Source of the DNA: a virus
Taxonomy: Duplodnaviria; Heunggongvirae; Uroviricota; Caudoviricetes
Strand: one strand, 5' to 3'
IMG/VR virus record: IMGVR_UViG_2778260992_000001
DNA length: 64,000 nucleotides
This document shows positions 2,602 through 60,666 of the stretch, in pieces. Below the pieces are notes generated by a model that did no database searches, had not been told where the DNA came from, and worked only from the letters and a program-made list of their open reading frames with translations. How positions within the stretch are numbered: position 1 is the first letter of the stretch; each line of letters starts with the position of its first letter. The position numbers and the translations under genes were made by a program.

Positions 2602-4710
2602 ATGTCTAAAAAACGTTCCATCAAAGAGGTTCAGGACTTCCGTGACAGTGTAAAACGAGTAGTCGCTCTCCTTTCAGGTAAAAACATCCCTGTTGCAGAA
2701 CGAGGGGACGACGCTTATGTACGCTATAACGATGATGGAGAGCCAATTCTCGTAAACATCCCATCAATCCCGGATAACGCAACACCGGCATTGATGAATG
2801 CTGTGCGCGGATTTCTCGATCATGAGGTTGCTCACATTTTGTTTACCGATATTCGTGTGTCCAACAAAATGAAAGAAAAAGGACGCGTTCCTTCCTGGTC
2901 GCTATGGAATGCCTTAGAAGACGTGTTCATCGAGCGAAAAATGGGTCAGGTCTTTAACGGAACAAGACGTAATCTGATGGCAACTCAGCGCCTTATAATC
3001 GAAAAAGTCTTTAAACCAAAGGCTTCAGAGGCTATTGCTTATTGTGGCAAAGATCAGCGCGCGCTTTTTCTAAACTTCTTTCTCTGTCCGGTTGTAAGAG
3101 CCTGGGATGGCCAAGCACCGTTCGTAGATTTCATGGATGAATATTGGCCTGTCATTGAGAAACCAATTTCATTATTAAAAGAACATGGTATCGATGTGGC
3201 CGTGCGTAACATGTCTTGCACCGAGGATTGTGTAAAGGTGGCTGCGACCATAGCTAAGATCCTCAAAGACACTGAAAGTGAAAGCAAAGGTAAGGAGTCA
3301 GCTCCGGGAAAAACTTCCGATCCTTCAGACGCTGACCAGACGGATGCCTCTGGAGAAAACAATGAAGACAACGAAGATCATGAGACACCCTCATTGTTAG
3401 ATAACCACAAATCTATCAAATCAGAATCACACAGTAACCACAAACATGATAATAACAACAGTGATGATTCAGATAATTCTGAATCATCAGAAACAATATT
3501 CGATGATACAGAAAATGATAAAGAGGTATCAGATTCTGATGCTTCTGATAACGCGGCGTCAGAATCATTAACCGCTGACCACGAAAAAAGAAAAACGACA
3601 GAAGACGGCTCTTCAGATATTCCAACTCCGTCAAAAATGAGTCTGGAAGAGGCTTTAGAGGAGCTGGATAGCATAGAAGATGAAGTCGGAGGCATGACAG
3701 AAGATGCTCTATCCGAAACGATTAAAAGCGAGTTAACAGAAAGCTCGAAAAGTGAATACAGGCCATACAATCGCTCATACGACTTCATCGGCTCGATTGA
3801 TCAGGCAGAAGCCCATATCAAACGGCTTATTAAAACATTCTCCGATATTGATTTAGGAGGATATCCAATCAGCCGCTATCGCATCGTTCCTGAAGGCAAC
3901 CAGCTCTTCGACAAATATATTGAAAAGCATCTTTCGTCAGGTGTTTCGTCGACGCTGGCAAAAGACCTGGAGCGAGCAATAGCAAGCAGAAACAGAGTTC
4001 AGTTTATACCGGGCCAGCGTCGGGGGCGCATTCATGGTTCTAGTATCTACAGATTAGCAATGAATGATGATCGCGTGTTTCGTAAAAAAGAAGAATCTAA
4101 AGCCGTTAATGCCTGTGTTCAACAAGTGATTGATTTATCAGGTTCAATGAGTGGTATAACGATACAATTGGCTCTTGCAAGTGCATATACCATCGCCGAT
4201 GCCCTTGATCGAATAAATGTTCCCAACATTATCACCGGCTTCACTACATTTGGTAGTCATATGGCGGCAGGAGAACTTAAGGCTGTCAAGTATGAGTTCT
4301 CTCGCTTTGAATCTTTAATGCTACCTATCATCAAAAATTGGAATGAAAAGGTAAATTCTCGCGAAGTTCGCTCACGTATGGGGTGCGTAGGCTACACATT
4401 CCCACTTCTTAATAACGTGGATGGTGAAAGCATAGCCAGCCTTGCATCGTTATTTTCCGGTCGCATGGAGGACAGGAAGATCATGCTTGTTCTGAGTGAT
4501 GGCGCGCCGTGGGCTGTTGGGAGAGGGTTTGACGCTCATTTGCGTTCGGTTGCGAAACAAATTGAAACGCAGACTGACATTGATTTGATGGCAATTGGCA
4601 TCATGACTGACGCACCGGAGAGATTTTACTCAAATCATGCCCTGGTAACGAGCGTTGATAGTCTTGGTTCATCTGTAGTTACTGAACTATCTCGTATCAT
4701 TTTGAAGTGA
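2602..4710 (+). CDS. CobT-like von Willebrand factor A (vWA) domain protein
   Basis: 702 aa; long acidic Ser/Asp/Glu-rich central region; C-terminal MIDAS motif DLSGSMSG; paired with downstream AAA+ ATPase. Confidence 0.7.
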   Translation: MSKKRSIKEVQDFRDSVKRVVALLSGKNIPVAERGDDAYVRYNDDGEPILVNIPSIPDNATPALMNAVRGFLDHEVAHILFTDIRVSNKMKEKGRVPSWSLWNALEDVFIERKMGQVFNGTRRNLMATQRLIIEKVFKPKASEAIAYCGKDQRALFLNFFLCPVVRAWDGQAPFVDFMDEYWPVIEKPISLLKEHGIDVAVRNMSCTEDCVKVAATIAKILKDTESESKGKESAPGKTSDPSDADQTDASGENNEDNEDHETPSLLDNHKSIKSESHSNHKHDNNNSDDSDNSESSETIFDDTENDKEVSDSDASDNAASESLTADHEKRKTTEDGSSDIPTPSKMSLEEALEELDSIEDEVGGMTEDALSETIKSELTESSKSEYRPYNRSYDFIGSIDQAEAHIKRLIKTFSDIDLGGYPISRYRIVPEGNQLFDKYIEKHLSSGVSSTLAKDLERAIASRNRVQFIPGQRRGRIHGSSIYRLAMNDDRVFRKKEESKAVNACVQQVIDLSGSMSGITIQLALASAYTIADALDRINVPNIITGFTTFGSHMAAGELKAVKYEFSRFESLMLPIIKNWNEKVNSREVRSRMGCVGYTFPLLNNVDGESIASLASLFSGRMEDRKIMLVLSDGAPWAVGRGFDAHLRSVAKQIETQTDIDLMAIGIMTDAPERFYSNHALVTSVDSLGSSVVTELSRIILK

Positions 4711-6221: not shown

Positions 6222-9200
6222 ATGAAGGCACTGATGGTTCGAACTGACTTCTCACTTGGGGAGTCGGCTCTTAAAGCAGAAAACGCGGTGAAGATTGCCA
6301 GAGAAGCTGGCTACACCGCTGTAATTTCAGCAGATAGCATGAATATTGCGAGTGTTATTCCACTACAACGTGCCGCTGGTGACGACATGGCGGTTATTTG
6401 TGGTGTGAAACTAAACATCGTTGATGATCCCACATACGAGCACCGGGCTAAACTTGTTAAAGAATCTAAGGGATGTATGGAATCATTAGAGCGAGGACGT
6501 AACTACTCGTTTACCGCTCTAATTAAAAATGAGCAAGGATATCGCGACATCTGCGAACTAATGACGGTGGCCAACACACGAGAACAGTTCTACTTTGTAC
6601 CGCGTCTCTCGCTCGAACAGTTGGTTTCTACATATGCCAAAGGCAACATCATCCTGCTCACTTCCGACATCGGTAGCGTGTTCCAACGCAACGATTTTGC
6701 AAAAATCATAAGCACACTGATTACAGCGGGTGGAAAAGACAACTTCTATAGTGTGGTTTATCCGCACCCTACCCCATTCTACGACCAGATTAACGTCCGG
6801 GCGATGAAAGTCGCCAGCGCACTGAAAATAGAGCCAGTAGCGTTCTATCCCGCTTATTACGAATCGATCGACGATGCAGACATTAAAGACATTGCGCACA
6901 TGGTTATGAACAACATCAAAATCGACCAGCCGCATCGTCTGCGTATCCCCCACCAGCGAGATAACGCCGTCAATGGTCGCCGCCATCTCCTTGAGGCGCT
7001 TAAAGCCTTCTCCGTTCGCATGGATGTGCCGGTAACAGCTGCAATGGCCTCAACAACGCAGGATACCATTATCGATGCCTGCACATGGCGCTGGCATGAA
7101 TTGCCACCAGCACTGCCAAAGATGGCAGACGACGAGCCTGCAACGCTGATGAAACTGGCCGTTGCTGGGCTGCGTAAACGTCTTACCACAAAAGAGTTTG
7201 GCTACACACCACCGGCTTCTGAGAACAGGATTTATGTTGAACGGCTTAAGTACGAAATGGACACGCTTACTCGCCTGGGATTTTGTGGTTACTTCCTGAT
7301 GGTACGCGATCTGATGAATCACAGCCGTGAAGCTGGCATTCCTGTCGGGCCTGGTCGTGGCTCCTCCGCTGGCTCTCTGGTGGCATGGTGCATAGGTATA
7401 ACCAACGTCGATCCTATCCGTCACGGTCTTCTGTTTGAACGTTTCATCAACCCTGAGCGTCTCGACTTGCCGGATGCGGATTTGGACTTCAGCCAGGCAC
7501 GTCGCCATGAAGTGATCGAGTATCTGAATGAACGCTACGGCGAAGATTACGTTGCGGGTATTCCGAACTTCACATATCTGGGCGCAGCCTCTGCACTACG
7601 TGACACCGCTCGTATTTATGGTGTGGAGTCCGCAGATATGGCGGTATCAAAAGAACTGAAGAACGTCGAGGATGATAGCCTTCCACTGGAGGAGCTGCGC
7701 GAACAACTGGCAAGTCTCGACAAATACGCGACAAAATACCCTGATGCATTCAATGCAGCCTGCAAGTTACAAAGCCTTATGCGTGGCTTTGGTAGACATG
7801 CGGCAGGGATGATCGTAGCAGGTGTTCCTCTGACAGAACGTACACCGGTTGAGCGCCGTGGTGACGCGCGTTGTATCGCATTTGACAAGCGTTACTGCGA
7901 GGCTATGGGCCTAATTAAGCTGGACGTGCTTGGCCTGGCAACTCTCGATTTGCTCGATAGTGCAAAACGCTACATTAAAGAGAACACAGGTGAAGATATC
8001 AATCTTGATGCCATATCTCTTGAAGATCGCAAGGTGCTGGATGGTTTTGCTGCTGGGTACACTCAAGGTGTTTTCCAGCTTGAATCAGGCCCAATGCGCA
8101 AGCTGCTTAAAGATTTAGGTGGTGGAATTGAGCCAATGAGCTTTAAAACGGTCGTCGCTACGACTGCGCTCTTCCGGCCGGGGCCAATTCAGTCAGGCAT
8201 GTTGGATGACTATGTTTCTGTAGCCAAAGGCTTTATGACGCCGGAATCATTACACCCCGTTCTTGATGAGCTTACCGCAGAAACCAACGGTGTGATTCTC
8301 TATCAGGAGCAGACGATGAACGCGACCCGATTGCTTGCCGGCTTCACAATGGCTGAAGCTGACGGCGTTCGTAAAGCGATCGGCAAAAAAGATATGGAAA
8401 AAATGAAGAGCATGGGCGAGAAGTTCATCGTTCAGGCTCAAGCTGGCTGGATAGACGTTGAGCTGGAAGATGGCACTACACAGCGCATTCACCGTGCGGA
8501 ACATTTTAAATGCGAAGACGGAACTCTGAAAACTGTCGAAGAGGCACTTGAGCACGGCGCAAAACTACCTATAAACGCAGTACGCGTGACAGCGTCACAC
8601 CCAGGGCTATCAGAGATGAAAGCGAAGGAGATCTGGACCGCATTCGAAAAAAATGGTGCCTACCAGTTCAACAAATCACACTCTGTTGCTTACTCCTTAA
8701 TCAGTTATCAATCTATGTGGTTGAAAACTCATTATCCCGCAGAGTTTTTCGCTGCTGCTCTTACTATTCTTGGTGAAGATAAACACCAGGGGCTGGTTAA
8801 AGATGCGCTGACCTATGGCATTCGCGTATTGCCACCAGACGTTAATGTGTCATCTAACCGAATAGAGATCCGCACGCTTGAAGATGGCAGCCAGGTGCTG
8901 TTAGCGCCTTTCTCTGCTGTGAAGGGGTGTTCAGAGAATGGCTGCCAAGCCATCATGAGAGCGCGTGAAAAAGTTGGAGGTAAATTCGAGTCACTGGCGC
9001 AATTCGAAGAAGCTGTCGAGAAACGTGCCTGTAATAGTCGAGTACGCGAATCACTGCAAAAAGTAGGGGCGTTTGCATCCATTGAGCCTGGTAGTCTGCC
9101 AGCAACTGATCCAGAGCGTCTCCGCGACCAAGCAGAATTGATGGGAAACCTTGTCATAGACGCAGTTAAAGCCTCACGTCCGTTTGAAATGAACCCCAAA

Positions 9201-47521: not shown

Positions 47522-47911
47522 ATGGGCTTCCCTTCTCCTGCGGCGGATTATGCTGAGAGCCGTATTTCTCTTGATCAGCAGATAATTAGACATCCTTCAG
47601 CGACCTACTTCATGAGGGCAGCTGATAGTCATCATCGTGAGGGAATATTACAGGGTGCATTGCTGGTGGTCGATTCCTCACTTACCCCGGTTGATGGTTC
47701 TCTGCTTGTATGCGCTCTGGATGGGGAATATCGCGTAAAAAGATACCGGAAGTATCCACGTCAGCATCTGGAGGATTTAAGAACCGGTAAGAAGGAAGCA
47801 TTGCCAAAGGATGACGATGGATGCACGGGCAGCAATGCCGTGTTTGGTGTGATCACTCACATTATCAACGACGCAAGAAGTGGCGAGTTTGATGATTGTC
47901 CCGTGATGTAG
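47522..47911 (+). CDS. UmuD-prime-like SOS mutagenesis protein (P1 HumD-like; S24 LexA-type fold)
   Basis: GFPSPAADYAESRI ... HPSATYF ... VDGEYRVKR aligns with the UmuD C-terminal domain but lacks the N-terminal arm; 129 aa; LexA box upstream; no umuC partner adjacent. Confidence 0.7.
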   Translation: MGFPSPAADYAESRISLDQQIIRHPSATYFMRAADSHHREGILQGALLVVDSSLTPVDGSLLVCALDGEYRVKRYRKYPRQHLEDLRTGKKEALPKDDDGCTGSNAVFGVITHIINDARSGEFDDCPVM

Positions 47912-53699: not shown

Positions 53700-53840
53700 C
53701 CATACAGGGGAAAGGCTGCATCCCGCTACAGAAACGGCTGGGTTGCCTTTGGGAACGGCTGGAGGTTTTCAGGGAAACGGTCGAGTTGCCTGTGTGGATT
53801 TCGGGAAAAGGCTCGATGCCGGTTCAGGAACGGTGGCGTA
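53700..53840. repeat. cluster of GRAAACGGC repeats (copy 1)
   Basis: GGGAAAGGCTG, AGAAACGGCTGG, GGGAACGGCTGG, GGGAAACGGTCG, GGGAAAAGGCTCG, GGAACGGTGG within about 140 bp. Confidence 0.55.
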
Positions 53841-57314: not shown

Positions 57315-57500
57315 GAGGGCCAGAAACGGCCCTTTCTCTATAGCCACCAGCTGCCGCAGGGAAATTTTCAGAAACGGCGAGGAACGTATTCATGAGCCGA
57401 CGGGAAACGGCCAGGATTTTTTCGGGAAACGGCTGCATTCGCCTTTATGTAGAAAAAACATCGGGAAGCTGGTGGAATCCAACCAGCGGTTGTCGGACAG
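57315..57500. repeat. cluster of GRAAACGGC repeats (copy 2)
   Basis: CAGAAACGGCCC, CAGAAACGGCGAGG, GGGAAACGGCCAGG, GGGAAACGGCTGC, GGGAAGCTGG; TTCTCTATAGCC also shared with the 54.55 kb region. Confidence 0.55.
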
Positions 57501-57894
57501 GTGAGCGGGGAAAATTATGATGACTTTCGTCACCTGAGACATCCAGATTTCTTTCGTAGCATAATCACATACGTGATTAAGTGGTGTGATTATGTGAAAA
57601 ATCACGCGCACATAATACGCGAGCGGATACAGAACAAAACAAAATGCCGATCCGCACCGACAAATAAACGCGGATCACATAGCAAGACTAAAAGCCAATG
57701 ATTAACCATACTCTATAGCGCAATATAACGCGTTTTAAGCGCGTTAATGTGTTAAGTAATGGGTATGTACTGGCAAGGATATAAAAGCGCGTCTATGGCG
57801 TTATTTTGGTGCTTATTTTTATGTTGTTGGAGTGAGTTAAAGACAATAAAAAACGCGCCATTGATGGCGCGTTATTGTGGAAGTATTGGAAACG

Positions 57895-57930
57895 AAAAAA
57901 GCGCCCATAGTGGGCGCTCGATTTTATTTA
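57895..57930 (-). terminator. terminator hairpin GCGCCCATAGTGGGCGC flanked by A- and T-tracts
   Basis: Perfect 7-bp stem; A6 upstream and T-rich downstream on + strand, so it can act for the minus-strand cassette; duplicate at 58397-58413; related ACGCGCCATTGATGGCGCGT hairpin at 57851-57872. Confidence 0.55.
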
Positions 57931-58154
57931 TGTAAACTGATTTCAAATCCCATTTCTACAAACGCTTTCAGCATTAAAAATATATCAGCGTCGTTCACGT
58001 CTGCTTTTTTTCGCTCCTGGTCGCTCAATAAGTCAATTTTGCGCGTCGTTTCATCTATAAGCTCGACTGCGCGCCCAGCGTAACCAGCGATCCCAGCGAT
58101 GCGATTAACATAATATTCGTTATGGACGTTAACGCCAGCGATAAGAACAAACAT
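57924..58154 (-). CDS. hypothetical small protein (cassette gene 3)
   Basis: 76-aa ORF, last gene of a minus-strand three-gene cassette. Confidence 0.4.
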   Translation of the reverse strand: MFVLIAGVNVHNEYYVNRIAGIAGYAGRAVELIDETTRKIDLLSDQERKKADVNDADIFLMLKAFVEMGFEISLHK

Positions 58155-58174
58155 GATTAAGCTCCTTAAAAAAA

Positions 58175-58378
58175 TTAAATAGAATTTTGAAGTTTTCCAA
58201 TTAATGCGCTTAAACGTAAGTATTCACGTTTGCGCTTGCAATCTCGCTTGCTGTTAAGCAAATCAGAAAACGTAAAATTTAATTGGTCGCGTTGCGCGAT
58301 TAAATCATCGATTAATTCTAGTTTATAAGCGCGATACTTTGCGCGATATTCCGCGCGGATCTTGTCATAGCTGACCAT
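58175..58378 (-). CDS. hypothetical small basic coiled-coil protein (cassette gene 2)
   Basis: 67 aa from MVSYDK with AAGGAG RBS; Lys/Arg-rich; track extension runs into the hairpin and is rejected. Confidence 0.4.
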   Translation of the reverse strand: MVSYDKIRAEYRAKYRAYKLELIDDLIAQRDQLNFTFSDLLNSKRDCKRKREYLRLSALIGKLQNSI

Positions 58379-58426
58379 TTTCAAAGCTCCTTTAAAGCGC
58401 CCATAGTGGGCGCTTGATTCCATTAA

Positions 58427-59077
58427 TTACGCTTTGAAAGCATCAGCTAAATAATTGTAGAAATCATTTTTAATGAAGCGATATTGCTGAGTACCAGCTT
58501 TCGCGCTCCCAGCTCCTTTGACTTTTTCAACAAGTCCAAGACGTTCGCAAAGATTGATCAACTGGTTGGCTTGAGTATAACCAGCGTCCAATTTAATTTC
58601 ACACGCTTTTTTAGCTTCATTCATTAAATCGAAAACAGCGCCATTAGTGAACGTGTCGATCTCGTCGTTAATCATATCGATTAAAGCGAATACACGAGAT
58701 CCAGACATATCAGCGATGGAATAAACGCATTTACCAGATTTAATTGATTTAACCAGATAAACCAGTTTTTCCAGAGAATAACTATTAGTCATTGCATCAC
58801 GGAAAAATACTTCTGGCGCTTGTTTGCTTGCTTTAATCGCATAGTAGAAAACAGAGCATAATTTTTCGTCTTCTACTGCGTTTACGACGTTGTTGATGAA
58901 GTAAGCAAGTTTAGTGGTCGCAGCTTGCATATTTGCTTTGTCTGCTTTAGTGTGCGTACCATTTTTATAATGTTCGTTATATGTTTGAGTTGCCAGATCT
59001 GCTTTTTCGCGCAGTTCATCGGATACAATGGAAGCAGCTTCAATGATGGATTTTTTAGAAATGATAATGTTAGCCAT
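58427..59077 (-). CDS. hypothetical protein (cassette gene 1), possible C-terminal winged-helix
   Basis: 216-aa ORF; sequence style (GCGCG-rich, AT-rich flanks) differs from neighbours. Confidence 0.5.
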   Translation of the reverse strand: MANIIISKKSIIEAASIVSDELREKADLATQTYNEHYKNGTHTKADKANMQAATTKLAYFINNVVNAVEDEKLCSVFYYAIKASKQAPEVFFRDAMTNSYSLEKLVYLVKSIKSGKCVYSIADMSGSRVFALIDMINDEIDTFTNGAVFDLMNEAKKACEIKLDAGYTQANQLINLCERLGLVEKVKGAGSAKAGTQQYRFIKNDFYNYLADAFKA

Positions 59078-59319
59078 GATAATTTTTCCTTATGTAAATT
59101 TAAAATTTATTGTCGTTAGCGTCTTCGCTTTCGACGAGTTCAATTATCGATATGCGAAAAAAGATTGCAAGTGTTTTTTTTAAATTTTTTGCAGGGATGA
59201 AAGTCCTAGAAATAAAAGCGAGATCGTCGAAGGTGTTCCCTAAATAAATAATCGATTGCGGCTTTAGACCTTATATATATTTAGGTTATTTGATTTGTAG
59301 ATATAAAGAAGTGATGTGA

Positions 59320-59350
59320 AAAATAATAACCGGACTTAGCCGGTTATTAA
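59320..59350 (-). terminator. terminator hairpin AATAACCGG-acttag-CCGGTTATT for minus-strand genes
   Basis: A-tract on + strand upstream gives a T-tract after the hairpin on the minus strand. Confidence 0.5.
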
Positions 59351-59360
59351 CCTTATAGAT

Positions 59361-59669
59361 TTATTGAACAGAATCTACAGCCTTACGATTGGTGTCAAAT
59401 AGCGCATCAACGAACTGTGCCGATGACTCGCTAGATTCGCAATCCAACATTGCCCGTTCTTCATTTGCCACTTTCTTACACAGTTCTACATTCTCACCTA
59501 TCGCTTTTCCTGCTTTTACGGCTGCCGAAAATTGATACATGCAAACTGATACATTCTGAGACGTTGAGCACACGTCATTCATCAGCGACTGAATGACAGG
59601 CTTATAGTCCATTGCATTTGCCGCAACTGAGCAAAGTAAAAATAATGGTGGTAACAATATCGATTTCAT
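59361..59669 (-). CDS. hypothetical secreted Cys-rich small protein
   Basis: Signal peptide MKSILLPPLFLLCSVAANA; four Cys in mature part. Confidence 0.5.
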   Translation of the reverse strand: MKSILLPPLFLLCSVAANAMDYKPVIQSLMNDVCSTSQNVSVCMYQFSAAVKAGKAIGENVELCKKVANEERAMLDCESSESSAQFVDALFDTNRKAVDSVQ

Positions 59670-59672
59670 AAC

Positions 59673-60197
59673 TCAAAAAGGCAAAATTCGTTCAACCCAA
59701 TCGAACAAAACAACTATTTTTCTACCGTTCTCGACACGTAGTGTAACCTGACAAGCATCTGCGCCTGCTGACACCCCCTCAATTTCACGGCCATCCGCCA
59801 TGTACACCCTTATAGATTTGTTTGCTTTGTAGGCTTGGTTGCAAATTGCAAAAAAATCGCGGCGTGATGGCCGATTATCGACATAATCAGGGTGAACTGT
59901 TAGTCGACCTTTGAAATCGTGAGCGATACTGTCAACCACACCTGATTCAATTGTACTAATGCGTTCAAGTGGGAGCCTTATACGATTTTCTTTGTCAAAA
60001 GGGGCTGGGCAAAGGTCAACTTTGTTACGAGATGGCATGAGGCCATAAACGTACATGCAAAACGCCTGGCCATCTTCGAGAGTGACCCTTACAGGAATTT
60101 GTTCTCTGCGCCAGAACATCAGTAGTTTTTCAACGTTAGTGTAATCTCGCGGCCAGAGTTCAGCTTGGATACCGTAGGTAATATCTTTGGTTGTCAT
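59673..60197 (-). CDS. hypothetical protein (weak tandem Rof/YaeO-like resemblance)
   Basis: Start set at MTTKDITYG to avoid overlap with upstream lipoprotein gene; resemblance is weak. Confidence 0.4.
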   Translation of the reverse strand: MTTKDITYGIQAELWPRDYTNVEKLLMFWRREQIPVRVTLEDGQAFCMYVYGLMPSRNKVDLCPAPFDKENRIRLPLERISTIESGVVDSIAHDFKGRLTVHPDYVDNRPSRRDFFAICNQAYKANKSIRVYMADGREIEGVSAGADACQVTLRVENGRKIVVLFDWVERILPF

Positions 60198-60201
60198 GTC
60201 A

Positions 60202-60666
60202 TCACAGAGTTGTTGGCAGAATGTCGATGTCACCAGAATTGCTGGTGAACACCCTGAACGCTTTTGTGTCTCCATTCTTCAGAGTCGTTTCTCGCTCTTG
60301 ACGAGCGGGGTTTAGAGCACATAAACCTGCACCTTCAAGAGATGCACCCACAATTAATTCTCCGGCATTTAAATGAAAAGTCGCTTTTTCGCCTGTAGCC
60401 AGTTTTGCGACAGTTTCGCCATTGATGAAAATGGAAGCATCACATCCAGCTCCTACAAAACCTGTGTCTCTCATTACCACCAACGTAGCTGGCGCTGCGC
60501 TTTGATACTTGAACACTTTGGCCTGCGGTGCTGGTTTGGCGTCATGGATTGATATTGGACGTGATTGGCACGCGGTAAGCATCAACACTGGTAACGTTAG
60601 TAGAGGGAGAAGCGAGTATTTCATGTTAGTTTTAGAACAGAAAGTGAACAGTATGGGAGACTTCAT
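60202..60666 (-). CDS. lipoprotein (DUF2846-like by pattern)
   Basis: Lipobox LTAC after hydrophobic signal; start may instead be the internal MKYSLL. Confidence 0.5.
   Translation of the reverse strand: MKSPILFTFCSKTNMKYSLLPLLTLPVLMLTACQSRPISIHDAKPAPQAKVFKYQSAAPATLVVMRDTGFVGAGCDASIFINGETVAKLATGEKATFHLNAGELIVGASLEGAGLCALNPARQERETTLKNGDTKAFRVFTSNSGDIDILPTTL

Follow-up and report, generated by a model that had tools for sequence, protein, structure and literature searches.

A predicted winged-helix protein gene and a hairpin-bounded slot for optional small genes in SSU5-like phage-plasmids

Three adjacent open reading frames (ORFs) on the minus strand, here designated genes A, B and C, were examined in IMG/VR virus record IMGVR_UViG_2778260992_000001, the analysed stretch of 64,000 nucleotides (nt) being referred to below as the window. 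An earlier note made from the sequence alone had singled them out as a compositionally distinct, self-contained accessory cassette of possible toxin-antitoxin, exclusion or regulatory function. The 1.8 kb around the cassette shares 97% identity with Escherichia phage CMS-2020a and 81–94% identity with PhiR41_1, Cyrano (pLF82) and Salmonella phage SSU5, identifying the window, by sequence identity, as derived from a phage-plasmid of the SSU5/pHCM2/pMT1 type. This group of phage-plasmids, to which pMT1 of Yersinia pestis also belongs, is widespread in clinical Escherichia, Klebsiella, Salmonella and Enterobacter, and the control of their lytic and lysogenic states is essentially unstudied.

The three ORFs are real and encode proteins of 216, 67 and 76 amino acids (aa), respectively (Table 1). 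An automatic ORF list extends gene B to 82 aa, with the first 15 codons crossing a hairpin, and the start used here is the internal ATG found in the PHROG profile and in the PhiR41_1 and SSU5 annotations. The distinct composition described earlier was confirmed, as the GC content of the cassette is 38.5% compared with 45.6% for the window (3rd percentile of segments of equal size), and GCGC occurs 13.0 times per kb compared with 3.7 times per kb (3.5-fold, 98.6th percentile). The cassette had also been described as read opposite to the genes that surround it, and this holds on the low-coordinate side, where it is antiparallel to an array of small plus-strand genes, but not on the other side, where it is co-oriented with all genes up to a helicase gene (62533). 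The cassette therefore closes a minus-strand block that runs convergently towards the array.

Table 1. Features of the cassette and its control regions (positions in the window)
Feature	Coordinates	Strand	Remarks
Back-up terminator, AACGCGCCA-TCAA-TGGCGCGTT + T6	57852..57873	-	46 nt past the first terminator; sequence varies in relatives
Terminal hairpin copy + TTTTTT	57893..57919	-	full intrinsic terminator; terminator-like on the plus strand too
Gene C, 76 aa	57924..58154	-	phrog_1585; optional cassette gene
Gene B, 67 aa	58175..58378	-	phrog_6145; optional cassette gene
Internal hairpin copy	58395..58415	-	16 nt after gene A stop; followed by TTTAAAGGAGC
Gene A, 216 aa	58427..59077	-	orphan core protein; predicted N-terminal helical bundle and C-terminal winged helix
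Leader hairpin, GTCG-AA-AGCG-AAGA-CGCT-AA-CGAC	59112..59135	-	just after the -10 element; predicted -9.8 kcal/mol
Sigma-70-like promoter, TTGCAA, 16 nt, GATAAT	59143..59170	-	predicted by promoter scan; A-rich tract before it
Conserved blocks TTTATTTAGGGAACACCTTC (59248-59229) and TTATTTCTAGGAC (59215-59203)	59203..59248	-	near-invariant in the alignment
Direct repeats (A/C)TATAAGG(T/G)	59268..59358	-	copies at 59358-59350 and 59276-59268; candidate protein-binding sites
Insulating terminator, TAATAACCGG-CTAAGT-CCGGTTATTA + T-run	59324..59349	-	kept in all aligned relatives

The perfect hairpin reported earlier (GCGCCCA-NNN-TGGGCGC) was found exactly twice in the window, as the 17-nt sequence GCGCCCATAGTGGGCGC (coordinates 57901–57917 and 58397–58413; 0.1 copies expected by chance), and both copies are in the cassette. 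Its predicted RNA stability is about -15 kcal/mol. The internal copy has the stem of an intrinsic terminator (58415–58395) but not the run of T residues (TTTAAAGG only), and its broken T-tract, TTTAAAGGAGC, is continuous with the gene B Shine-Dalgarno sequence. The terminal copy (57919–57899) and the sequence beyond it (57873–57852) each have a suitable stem followed by TTTTTT, and the same arrangement was seen in 79 distinct relatives, where interrupted T-tracts (TTTAAAGG, TAGTTTTA or similar) follow the internal copies and tracts of 5–7 T residues follow the last copies. The internal hairpin would thus act as a leaky terminator or stabilise the 3' end, with leaky termination predicted after gene A and complete termination at the end of the unit. 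Terminators had been proposed at both ends of the cassette, and the one at the upstream end (59349–59324) is indeed present, though it belongs to the preceding gene. A match of the Rfam suhB/mmgR family to the tandem terminators (22.5 bits against a gathering score of 41) was rejected as a terminator artefact.

A total of 88 gene A loci was then collected, genes A, B and C and the hairpin were mapped on each, and the 79 distinct regions were counted. The first hairpin was always found ~16 nt after the gene A stop codon, and the slot that follows is always bounded by the same hairpin and may be empty or contain one or two small genes between the first hairpin copy and the last. No small gene was present in nine regions, a B-type gene alone in 27 (and in a further four with an extra tandem hairpin), gene C in 16, a second allele type, C', sharing 37–50% identity with gene C, in three, gene B together with C or C' in 18, and C' with C in two (L025 and L030, in tandem and each gene with its own hairpin). 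Cyrano, like many other relatives, lacks gene B, SSU5 lacks gene C and Y. pestis pMT1 carries C'. Several of these layouts occur inside a single clade with near-identical gene A sequences, indicating that gain and loss of the small genes is recurrent. A small gene starts with T(3–4)AAGGAGC straight after a hairpin and ends no more than 12 nt before the next one, and at the B–C junction of the window, which reads TAA-TTTTTTTAAGGAGC, the intervening hairpin is missing. No -35/-10 pair was found by the promoter scan within or beside the shared unit of hairpin and T(3–4)AAGGAGC.

No copy departs from the 7-bp stem GCGCCCA/TGGGCGC, including those in elements whose gene A product is only ~61% identical and whose flanking sequences have diverged. 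An exact search of IMG/VR found the 17-mer almost only in SSU5-like elements, in one to three clustered copies, with the other hits being chance matches, and in the full SSU5 genome its two copies lie at the gene A locus only. More distant members of the gene A family, in Pectobacterium Drgb1 (~39% identity), L091 (about one third, from the bit score) and L199 (~30%), have unrelated hairpins at the same positions. In L199 the order is gene A, a predicted leaky hairpin, a 32-aa ORF for a hydrophobic membrane peptide, MKSLFTKVFQFILIGVLVVPLVWWWMLAF, and a strong terminator (7686–7785), suggesting that the arrangement of gene A with an optional small gene is older than the invariant hairpin.

In contrast to the stem, the 3-nt loop varies in orientation. 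CTA was found in 62 first copies and TAG in eight, and the last copies include 60 with CTA and eight with TAG, while element L039 has the loop pair TCA/TGA. Flips were also seen in L011, L013, L021, L023, L026, L029, L043, L044 and others, independently for each copy. As they affect single hairpins in otherwise identical elements while gene orientation never changes, inversion of the cassette was rejected as their cause, and they resemble local inversions produced by template switching at an extruded palindrome.

Close homologues of the gene A product (102, nearly all of 216 aa) were found in a search of 5.8 billion proteins, on Enterobacterales contigs of ~100–113 kb. Using tblastn, gene A was detected in 815 plasmids in PLSDB, the genera represented being Klebsiella (346), Escherichia (217), Enterobacter (91), Yersinia (62, Y. 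pestis pMT1) and Salmonella (49). In annotated relatives, the ParB-like genes are followed by a divergent superfamily 2 (SF2) DEAD/ResIII helicase gene, a 92-aa gene, a lipoprotein gene and an fljA-like gene, and the cassette comes next, converging on the long array of small plus-strand genes. Distant members (~30–53% identity) occupy the same place after the SF2 helicase, and in the most distant relative the two genes are immediate neighbours, retained as a minimal pair. Gene A was thus present with conserved synteny in every SSU5-like element examined, and the label "accessory" given to the cassette earlier is not appropriate for this gene, which is, by these comparisons, a core gene restricted to the lineage.

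Gene A belongs to phrog_1513, a PHROGs family of unknown function, which was again the only family matched by its distant members. No match above noise to genes A, B or C was obtained in Pfam, NCBIfam or PADLOC, and PHROGs returned only unnamed families. Searches of PDB sequences with gene A, using both the single sequence and a profile, found nothing, and nor did tblastn of the family against phages. When 1.84 billion cluster representatives were searched exhaustively with a profile, only 23 proteins were recovered, all of the gene A family; hence there is no bridge from gene A to a known family. No paper on gene A was found, and WP_002211799 was nowhere mentioned in the literature searched.

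The earlier statement that none of the products has a recognisable motif therefore holds at the sequence level, but a confident AlphaFold2 model of gene A (mean predicted local distance difference test score, pLDDT, 84.9; alignment of 19 sequences) has a helical bundle at approximately residues 8–114 and a winged helix at approximately residues 126–213. The modelled C-terminal domain comprises a three-helix bundle, with YTQANQLINLCERLG as the predicted recognition helix, and a beta-hairpin wing that is rich in lysine. Invariant residues are T168, Q169, N171 and Q172 in the predicted recognition helix, together with lysines and glycines in the wing, a pattern that suggests a sequence-specific DNA binder. 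Gene A is hence likely to encode an uncharacterised winged-helix DNA-binding protein, and the regulatory role raised previously for the cassette becomes plausible because the 216-aa protein has such a predicted domain. The T4 middle-promoter activator MotA (~211 aa) also has an all-helical N-terminal domain and a C-terminal DNA-binding domain, and resembles gene A in architecture only. The ArsR/SmtB, MarR and PadR regulators differ from gene A in that its ~115-residue N-terminal bundle has no counterpart in them and no ligand or metal site is evident in gene A; membership of the MarR, ArsR and PadR families found no support, as there was no Pfam or NCBIfam match and the PDB profile search was empty.

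The region upstream of gene A was compared in an alignment of 74 distinct sequences. The terminator at its far end insulates the cassette from the upstream genes that are expressed in lysogens, and with a predicted promoter of its own and tandem downstream terminators the cassette is a self-contained unit, as originally proposed. The -35 CTTG and -10 GATAAT of the sigma-70-like promoter are kept across relatives. In the leader hairpin, which is unique in the window, the outer pair switches between G-C and A-T without exception across lineages and the inner stem has AGCA/TGCT variants; a few lineages, for example PhiR41_1, have a different leader.

The window has six TATAAGG copies, four of which form the cluster upstream of gene A, all on the minus strand and two of them inside the fljA-like gene (59815 and 59982), and all four copies in the SSU5 genome lie in the 400 bp that precede the gene A orthologue. 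As Markov models expect ~4–5 copies per genome, the clustering is significant, whereas the depletion elsewhere is not, and genome-wide avoidance of TATAAGG was rejected. Two or three copies are retained in relatives with gene A only 30–39% identical. The blocks TTTATTTAGGGAACACCTTC and TTATTTCTAGGAC, each unique in the window, can also still be recognised at this distance, in Pectobacterium Drgb1 and L199. This co-conservation, and the adjacency of the repeats to gene A, suggest that the gene A product may bind the TATAAGG cluster.

Published RNA-seq data for LF82 carrying Cyrano (PMC9928086, S1 Table; log2(FPKM+5), where FPKM is fragments per kilobase per million and 2.32 equals zero) cover genes A (CYRAN_113) and C (CYRAN_112). 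Both were at 2.3–2.8 in LB and near the floor in culture medium, while the upstream co-oriented genes CYRAN_114 (fljA-like), 117 and 118 (helicase) were expressed in lysogens (PMC9928086). Only at 6 h in macrophages did gene A rise, to ~5.6, and gene C to ~4.6, together with major capsid, tail and lysis genes, ParB and an ABC-type ATPase; the DnaB, primase and PolIII genes showed no rise (PMC9928086). Under this sole inducing condition the gene A signal was about a quarter of that of the major capsid gene (PMC9928086). These values show the unit to be off in lysogens and place it in the induced (lytic) set, and the level of gene C, roughly half that of gene A, is as leaky termination predicts.

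Taken together, these data are accounted for by an autonomous lytic-phase unit, made up of gene A as a DNA-binding regulator and a hairpin-delimited slot for optional small genes, a reading that we consider to have about an even chance of being correct. The sigma-70-type promoter would drive gene A and be held off in the plasmid (lysogenic) state, with the upstream terminator insulating the unit. The gene A product would act as a sequence-specific regulator of the lytic programme, on, and probably autoregulating through, the TATAAGG-type repeats and the conserved blocks upstream of its own promoter. The first hairpin, with its broken T-tract, would serve as a leaky terminator or 3' stabiliser that provides gene A in excess, permits some read-through into the small genes and so sets the ratio of A to B/C expression, and the second hairpin with its full T-tract, backed by the next terminator, would end the unit. 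Genes B and C would be dispensable passengers, gained, lost and swapped at junctions formed by the identical hairpins and by the TTTAAGGAGC ribosome-site segments, which are likewise repeated.

Several observations weigh against this reading. The invariance of the stem, in elements where gene A is only ~61% identical, is not explained by simple terminator function. The winged helix that was matched is a generic fold, and Foldseek searches of PDB and BFVD gave no significant match to the full-length gene A model. Gene A and TATAAGG are linked by adjacency and co-conservation only. The promoter appears competent for constitutive activity, and it shares no operator with other promoters in the window, as the 11-mers common to its region and the remainder of the window did not exceed chance level. 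Finally, the expression data are from one relative that lacks gene B and from bulk cultures with few induced cells, and the early or late timing is uncertain.

The nearest described mechanism appears to be the modular shuffling mediated by promoter-early stem-loop (PeSL) cassettes in T4-type phages (Arbiol et al. 2010, PMC2839356; Comeau et al. 2014, PMC4122927). In both cases, repeated terminator stem-loop motifs flank small non-essential ORFans and bound the insertions, deletions and replacements that distinguish relatives (PMC2839356, PMC4122927). However, the repeated unit here consists of a 17-nt hairpin and a ribosome-site segment with no promoter, thus the cassette genes would depend on read-through from gene A, and each genome carries a single slot instead of dozens, in a temperate siphovirus-type phage-plasmid. 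As the strong sigma-70-like early promoter that defines a PeSL is missing, the unit works like a PeSL system without being one. Genes B and C also resemble the morons of lambdoid-type phages in being small, different in composition, terminator-bounded, placed between conserved genes and variably present. Morons, however, bring a promoter of their own and are usually transcribed from the prophage, whereas no promoter precedes gene B or C and gene C is silent in lysogens of Cyrano (which lacks gene B). The locus is thus a moderately interesting variant of a known phage genome architecture and not a new kind of system. It nevertheless gives one of the few universally conserved genes of unknown function in this group a testable DNA-binding assignment, and the hairpin-bounded slot provides a compact natural example of ORFan shuffling in phages that could be used as an insertion site for engineering.

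An unlikely alternative is that the gene A product is not a transcription factor but an origin-binding or recombination accessory protein acting with the adjacent SF2 (UvsW/RecG-like) helicase, at either the upstream TATAAGG repeats or the downstream GGGAAACGG repeats in the 600-bp non-coding region. The most distant relative retains the helicase and gene A as the minimal pair, direct repeats clustered uniquely beside a winged-helix gene are the classic initiator-iteron layout, and conserved GAAACGG repeats with a spacing of 22 nt lie downstream. However, clusters of GAAACGG were also found at other intergenic sites, for example at 53731 and 53774, and neither an AT-rich unwinding element nor DnaA boxes were identified. 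The weak likeness found by Foldseek to the lid and winged helix of Orc1/Cdc6 and to replication terminator protein (E ~0.09–0.16) is not significant, and gene A lacks an ATPase domain and is not homologous to any of the Rep_3, lambda O or DnaA families. In addition, gene A of Cyrano tracks the capsid, tail and lysis genes and not DnaB, primase or PolIII. A partition adaptor like TubR or ParR would also bring a DNA-binding protein and repeats together, but in the TubR-tubC (type III) arrangement an NTPase partner is encoded, whereas only the 67- and 76-aa products of B and C follow gene A. Partition has to operate in the plasmid state, in which gene A is silent, and the element encodes ParA and ParB separately.

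It is also possible, if improbable, that the invariant hairpin is an RNA or DNA recognition element, read by a protein for RNA processing, antitermination or recombination, possibly by gene A itself, and that this reading defines the slot. The identity of the 7-bp stem in all copies, with a loop that varies freely in both orientations, would be expected of such an element, as would its restriction to this locus in the window, in SSU5 and, apart from chance matches, in IMG/VR. The unrelated hairpins in Pectobacterium, L091 and L199, where the recognition helix of gene A is conserved, argue against specific reading of the hairpin by gene A, which was for this reason rejected as the main model. 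Gene conversion with frequent recombination could also keep the copies identical with no reader, and either concerted evolution or a reader protein possibly accounts for the identity. We attach similarly low probability to a bolder proposal, in which the palindrome is a functional recombination or recognition site, like those of PeSLs or integron attC, that captures and exchanges promoter-less small genes, to be expressed through read-through in the lytic cycle, while gene A is the lytic master switch. If true, gene A with its private TATAAGG cluster would be an unrecognised master switch in a clinically widespread group that includes Y. pestis pMT1 and Salmonella Typhi pHCM2.

That gene A encodes an abundant late DNA-coating or packaging-accessory protein, either histone-like or tied to the terminase and ParB-nuclease module, seems very unlikely. 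Its strong Shine-Dalgarno sequence, the A-rich tract upstream of the promoter, the predicted 3' stabilising hairpin and a signal that follows the late genes at about a quarter of major-capsid level in Cyrano all fit such a product, and the locus adjoins the divergent ParB-ParB-ATPase-terminase block. However, the isoelectric point (pI) of the protein is near neutral (7.6), the invariant residues of the recognition helix and the dedicated repeat cluster upstream suggest sequence-specific binding, and no virion proteomics places it in particles.

An accessory toxin-antitoxin, superinfection-exclusion or defence module that benefits the lysogen, as favoured by the small size, distinct composition, terminator boundaries and variable presence of the genes and by the pairing of a basic B (pI 9.7) with an acidic C (pI 5.2) product, as in some toxin-antitoxin pairs, is highly improbable and largely refuted by the co-occurrence and expression data: gene A is universal; B and C are not an obligate pair, since B alone was found in 27 (+4) regions, a C-type gene alone in 19, both in 18 and neither in nine, so that most relatives carry one without the other; none of the three genes matched a Pfam, NCBIfam or PADLOC family (best PADLOC score 12 bits, E 0.027, for gene B and nothing for A and C); and, as the strongest argument, CYRAN_112 and CYRAN_113 are at ~zero FPKM in LB, when such systems must be expressed and when the KacT, HicAB and RelE toxin-antitoxin genes of the same element are at 90–590 FPKM in lysogens (PMC9928086; gene B not covered). 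Scoring the cassette as a defence or toxin-antitoxin locus should therefore be avoided.

Homologues of genes B and C were found in SSU5-like elements only. Gene B is probably helical, judging from its composition. Its label as an "MIT family metal ion transporter (CorA)" is an annotation error, as a transporter is not credible for a charged, hydrophilic protein of 67 aa; the name stems from the SSU5 record (GenBank accession number NC_018843.1, SSU5_119) and was inherited, with the "moron/AMG" (auxiliary metabolic gene) category, by phrog_6145. The AlphaFold2 model of gene C was poor (pLDDT 54) and no fold was assigned. An imperfect 9-nt tandem repeat (CCAGCGATC/CCAGCGATG) at 58075–58109 in gene C encodes the segment AGIAGYAG, and in-frame deletions of three or six codons in gene C homologues fall exactly at this repeat, suggesting length variation driven by slippage. 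In the Y. pestis Antiqua pMT plasmid (L089; coordinates 4022–4480), a copy of the insertion sequence IS1541, of the IS200/IS605 family, lies ~110 bp downstream of the C'-type gene, which in the related Y. pestis locus L005 is the region of the terminal hairpin and terminators.

Between the array and the cassette there is a non-coding gap of 616 bp that contains four copies of the motif (C/G)(A/G)GAAACGGC (coordinates 57321–57435, plus strand). The motif also occurs at 53731 and 53774 in the window and in distant relatives (L080, 4464–4530; L091, 7035–7158), always in the orientation of the array. A spacing of 22 nt separates two of the window copies and the four copies in L080, giving the motif an iteron-like appearance. 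The large conserved part of the gap (57340–57850) includes several further hairpins, an inverted repeat CATAATCACA/TGTGATTATG at 57560–57594 and minus-strand terminator-like sites at 57677–57648 and 57621–57605. It matched no Rfam family, and may contain a small RNA or regulatory site.

The 103-kb SSU5 genome is read almost wholly on one strand, and the block from the helicase gene to the cassette is among the few units read in the opposite direction. Just upstream of the cassette, the window contains two genes on the minus strand. The first (59673–60275) encodes a FljA-like protein (Pfam Flag1_repress, E 2.5e-84). FljA of Salmonella is the repressor of phase-1 flagellin, and the Cyrano orthologue of the fljA-like gene is expressed in lysogens; the element may therefore modulate host flagellin through this protein. 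The second, between the fljA-like gene and the cassette promoter (59361–59669), encodes a 102-aa protein with several cysteines and, by eye, an N-terminus resembling a signal peptide. It matched no family and is present in only a subset of relatives, being absent from SSU5, Cyrano and PhiR41_1, and looks like an accessory insertion on the lysogen side.

The Cyrano data also include a LexA-like S24 peptidase, CYRAN_98, expressed at ~148 FPKM in lysogens (PMC9928086, S1 Table). CYRAN_98 is a candidate SOS-cleavable master repressor, beside the annotated "putative repressor" CYRAN_45, and its expected orthologue in the window, by gene-order position alone, is a 129-aa ORF at 47522–47911.

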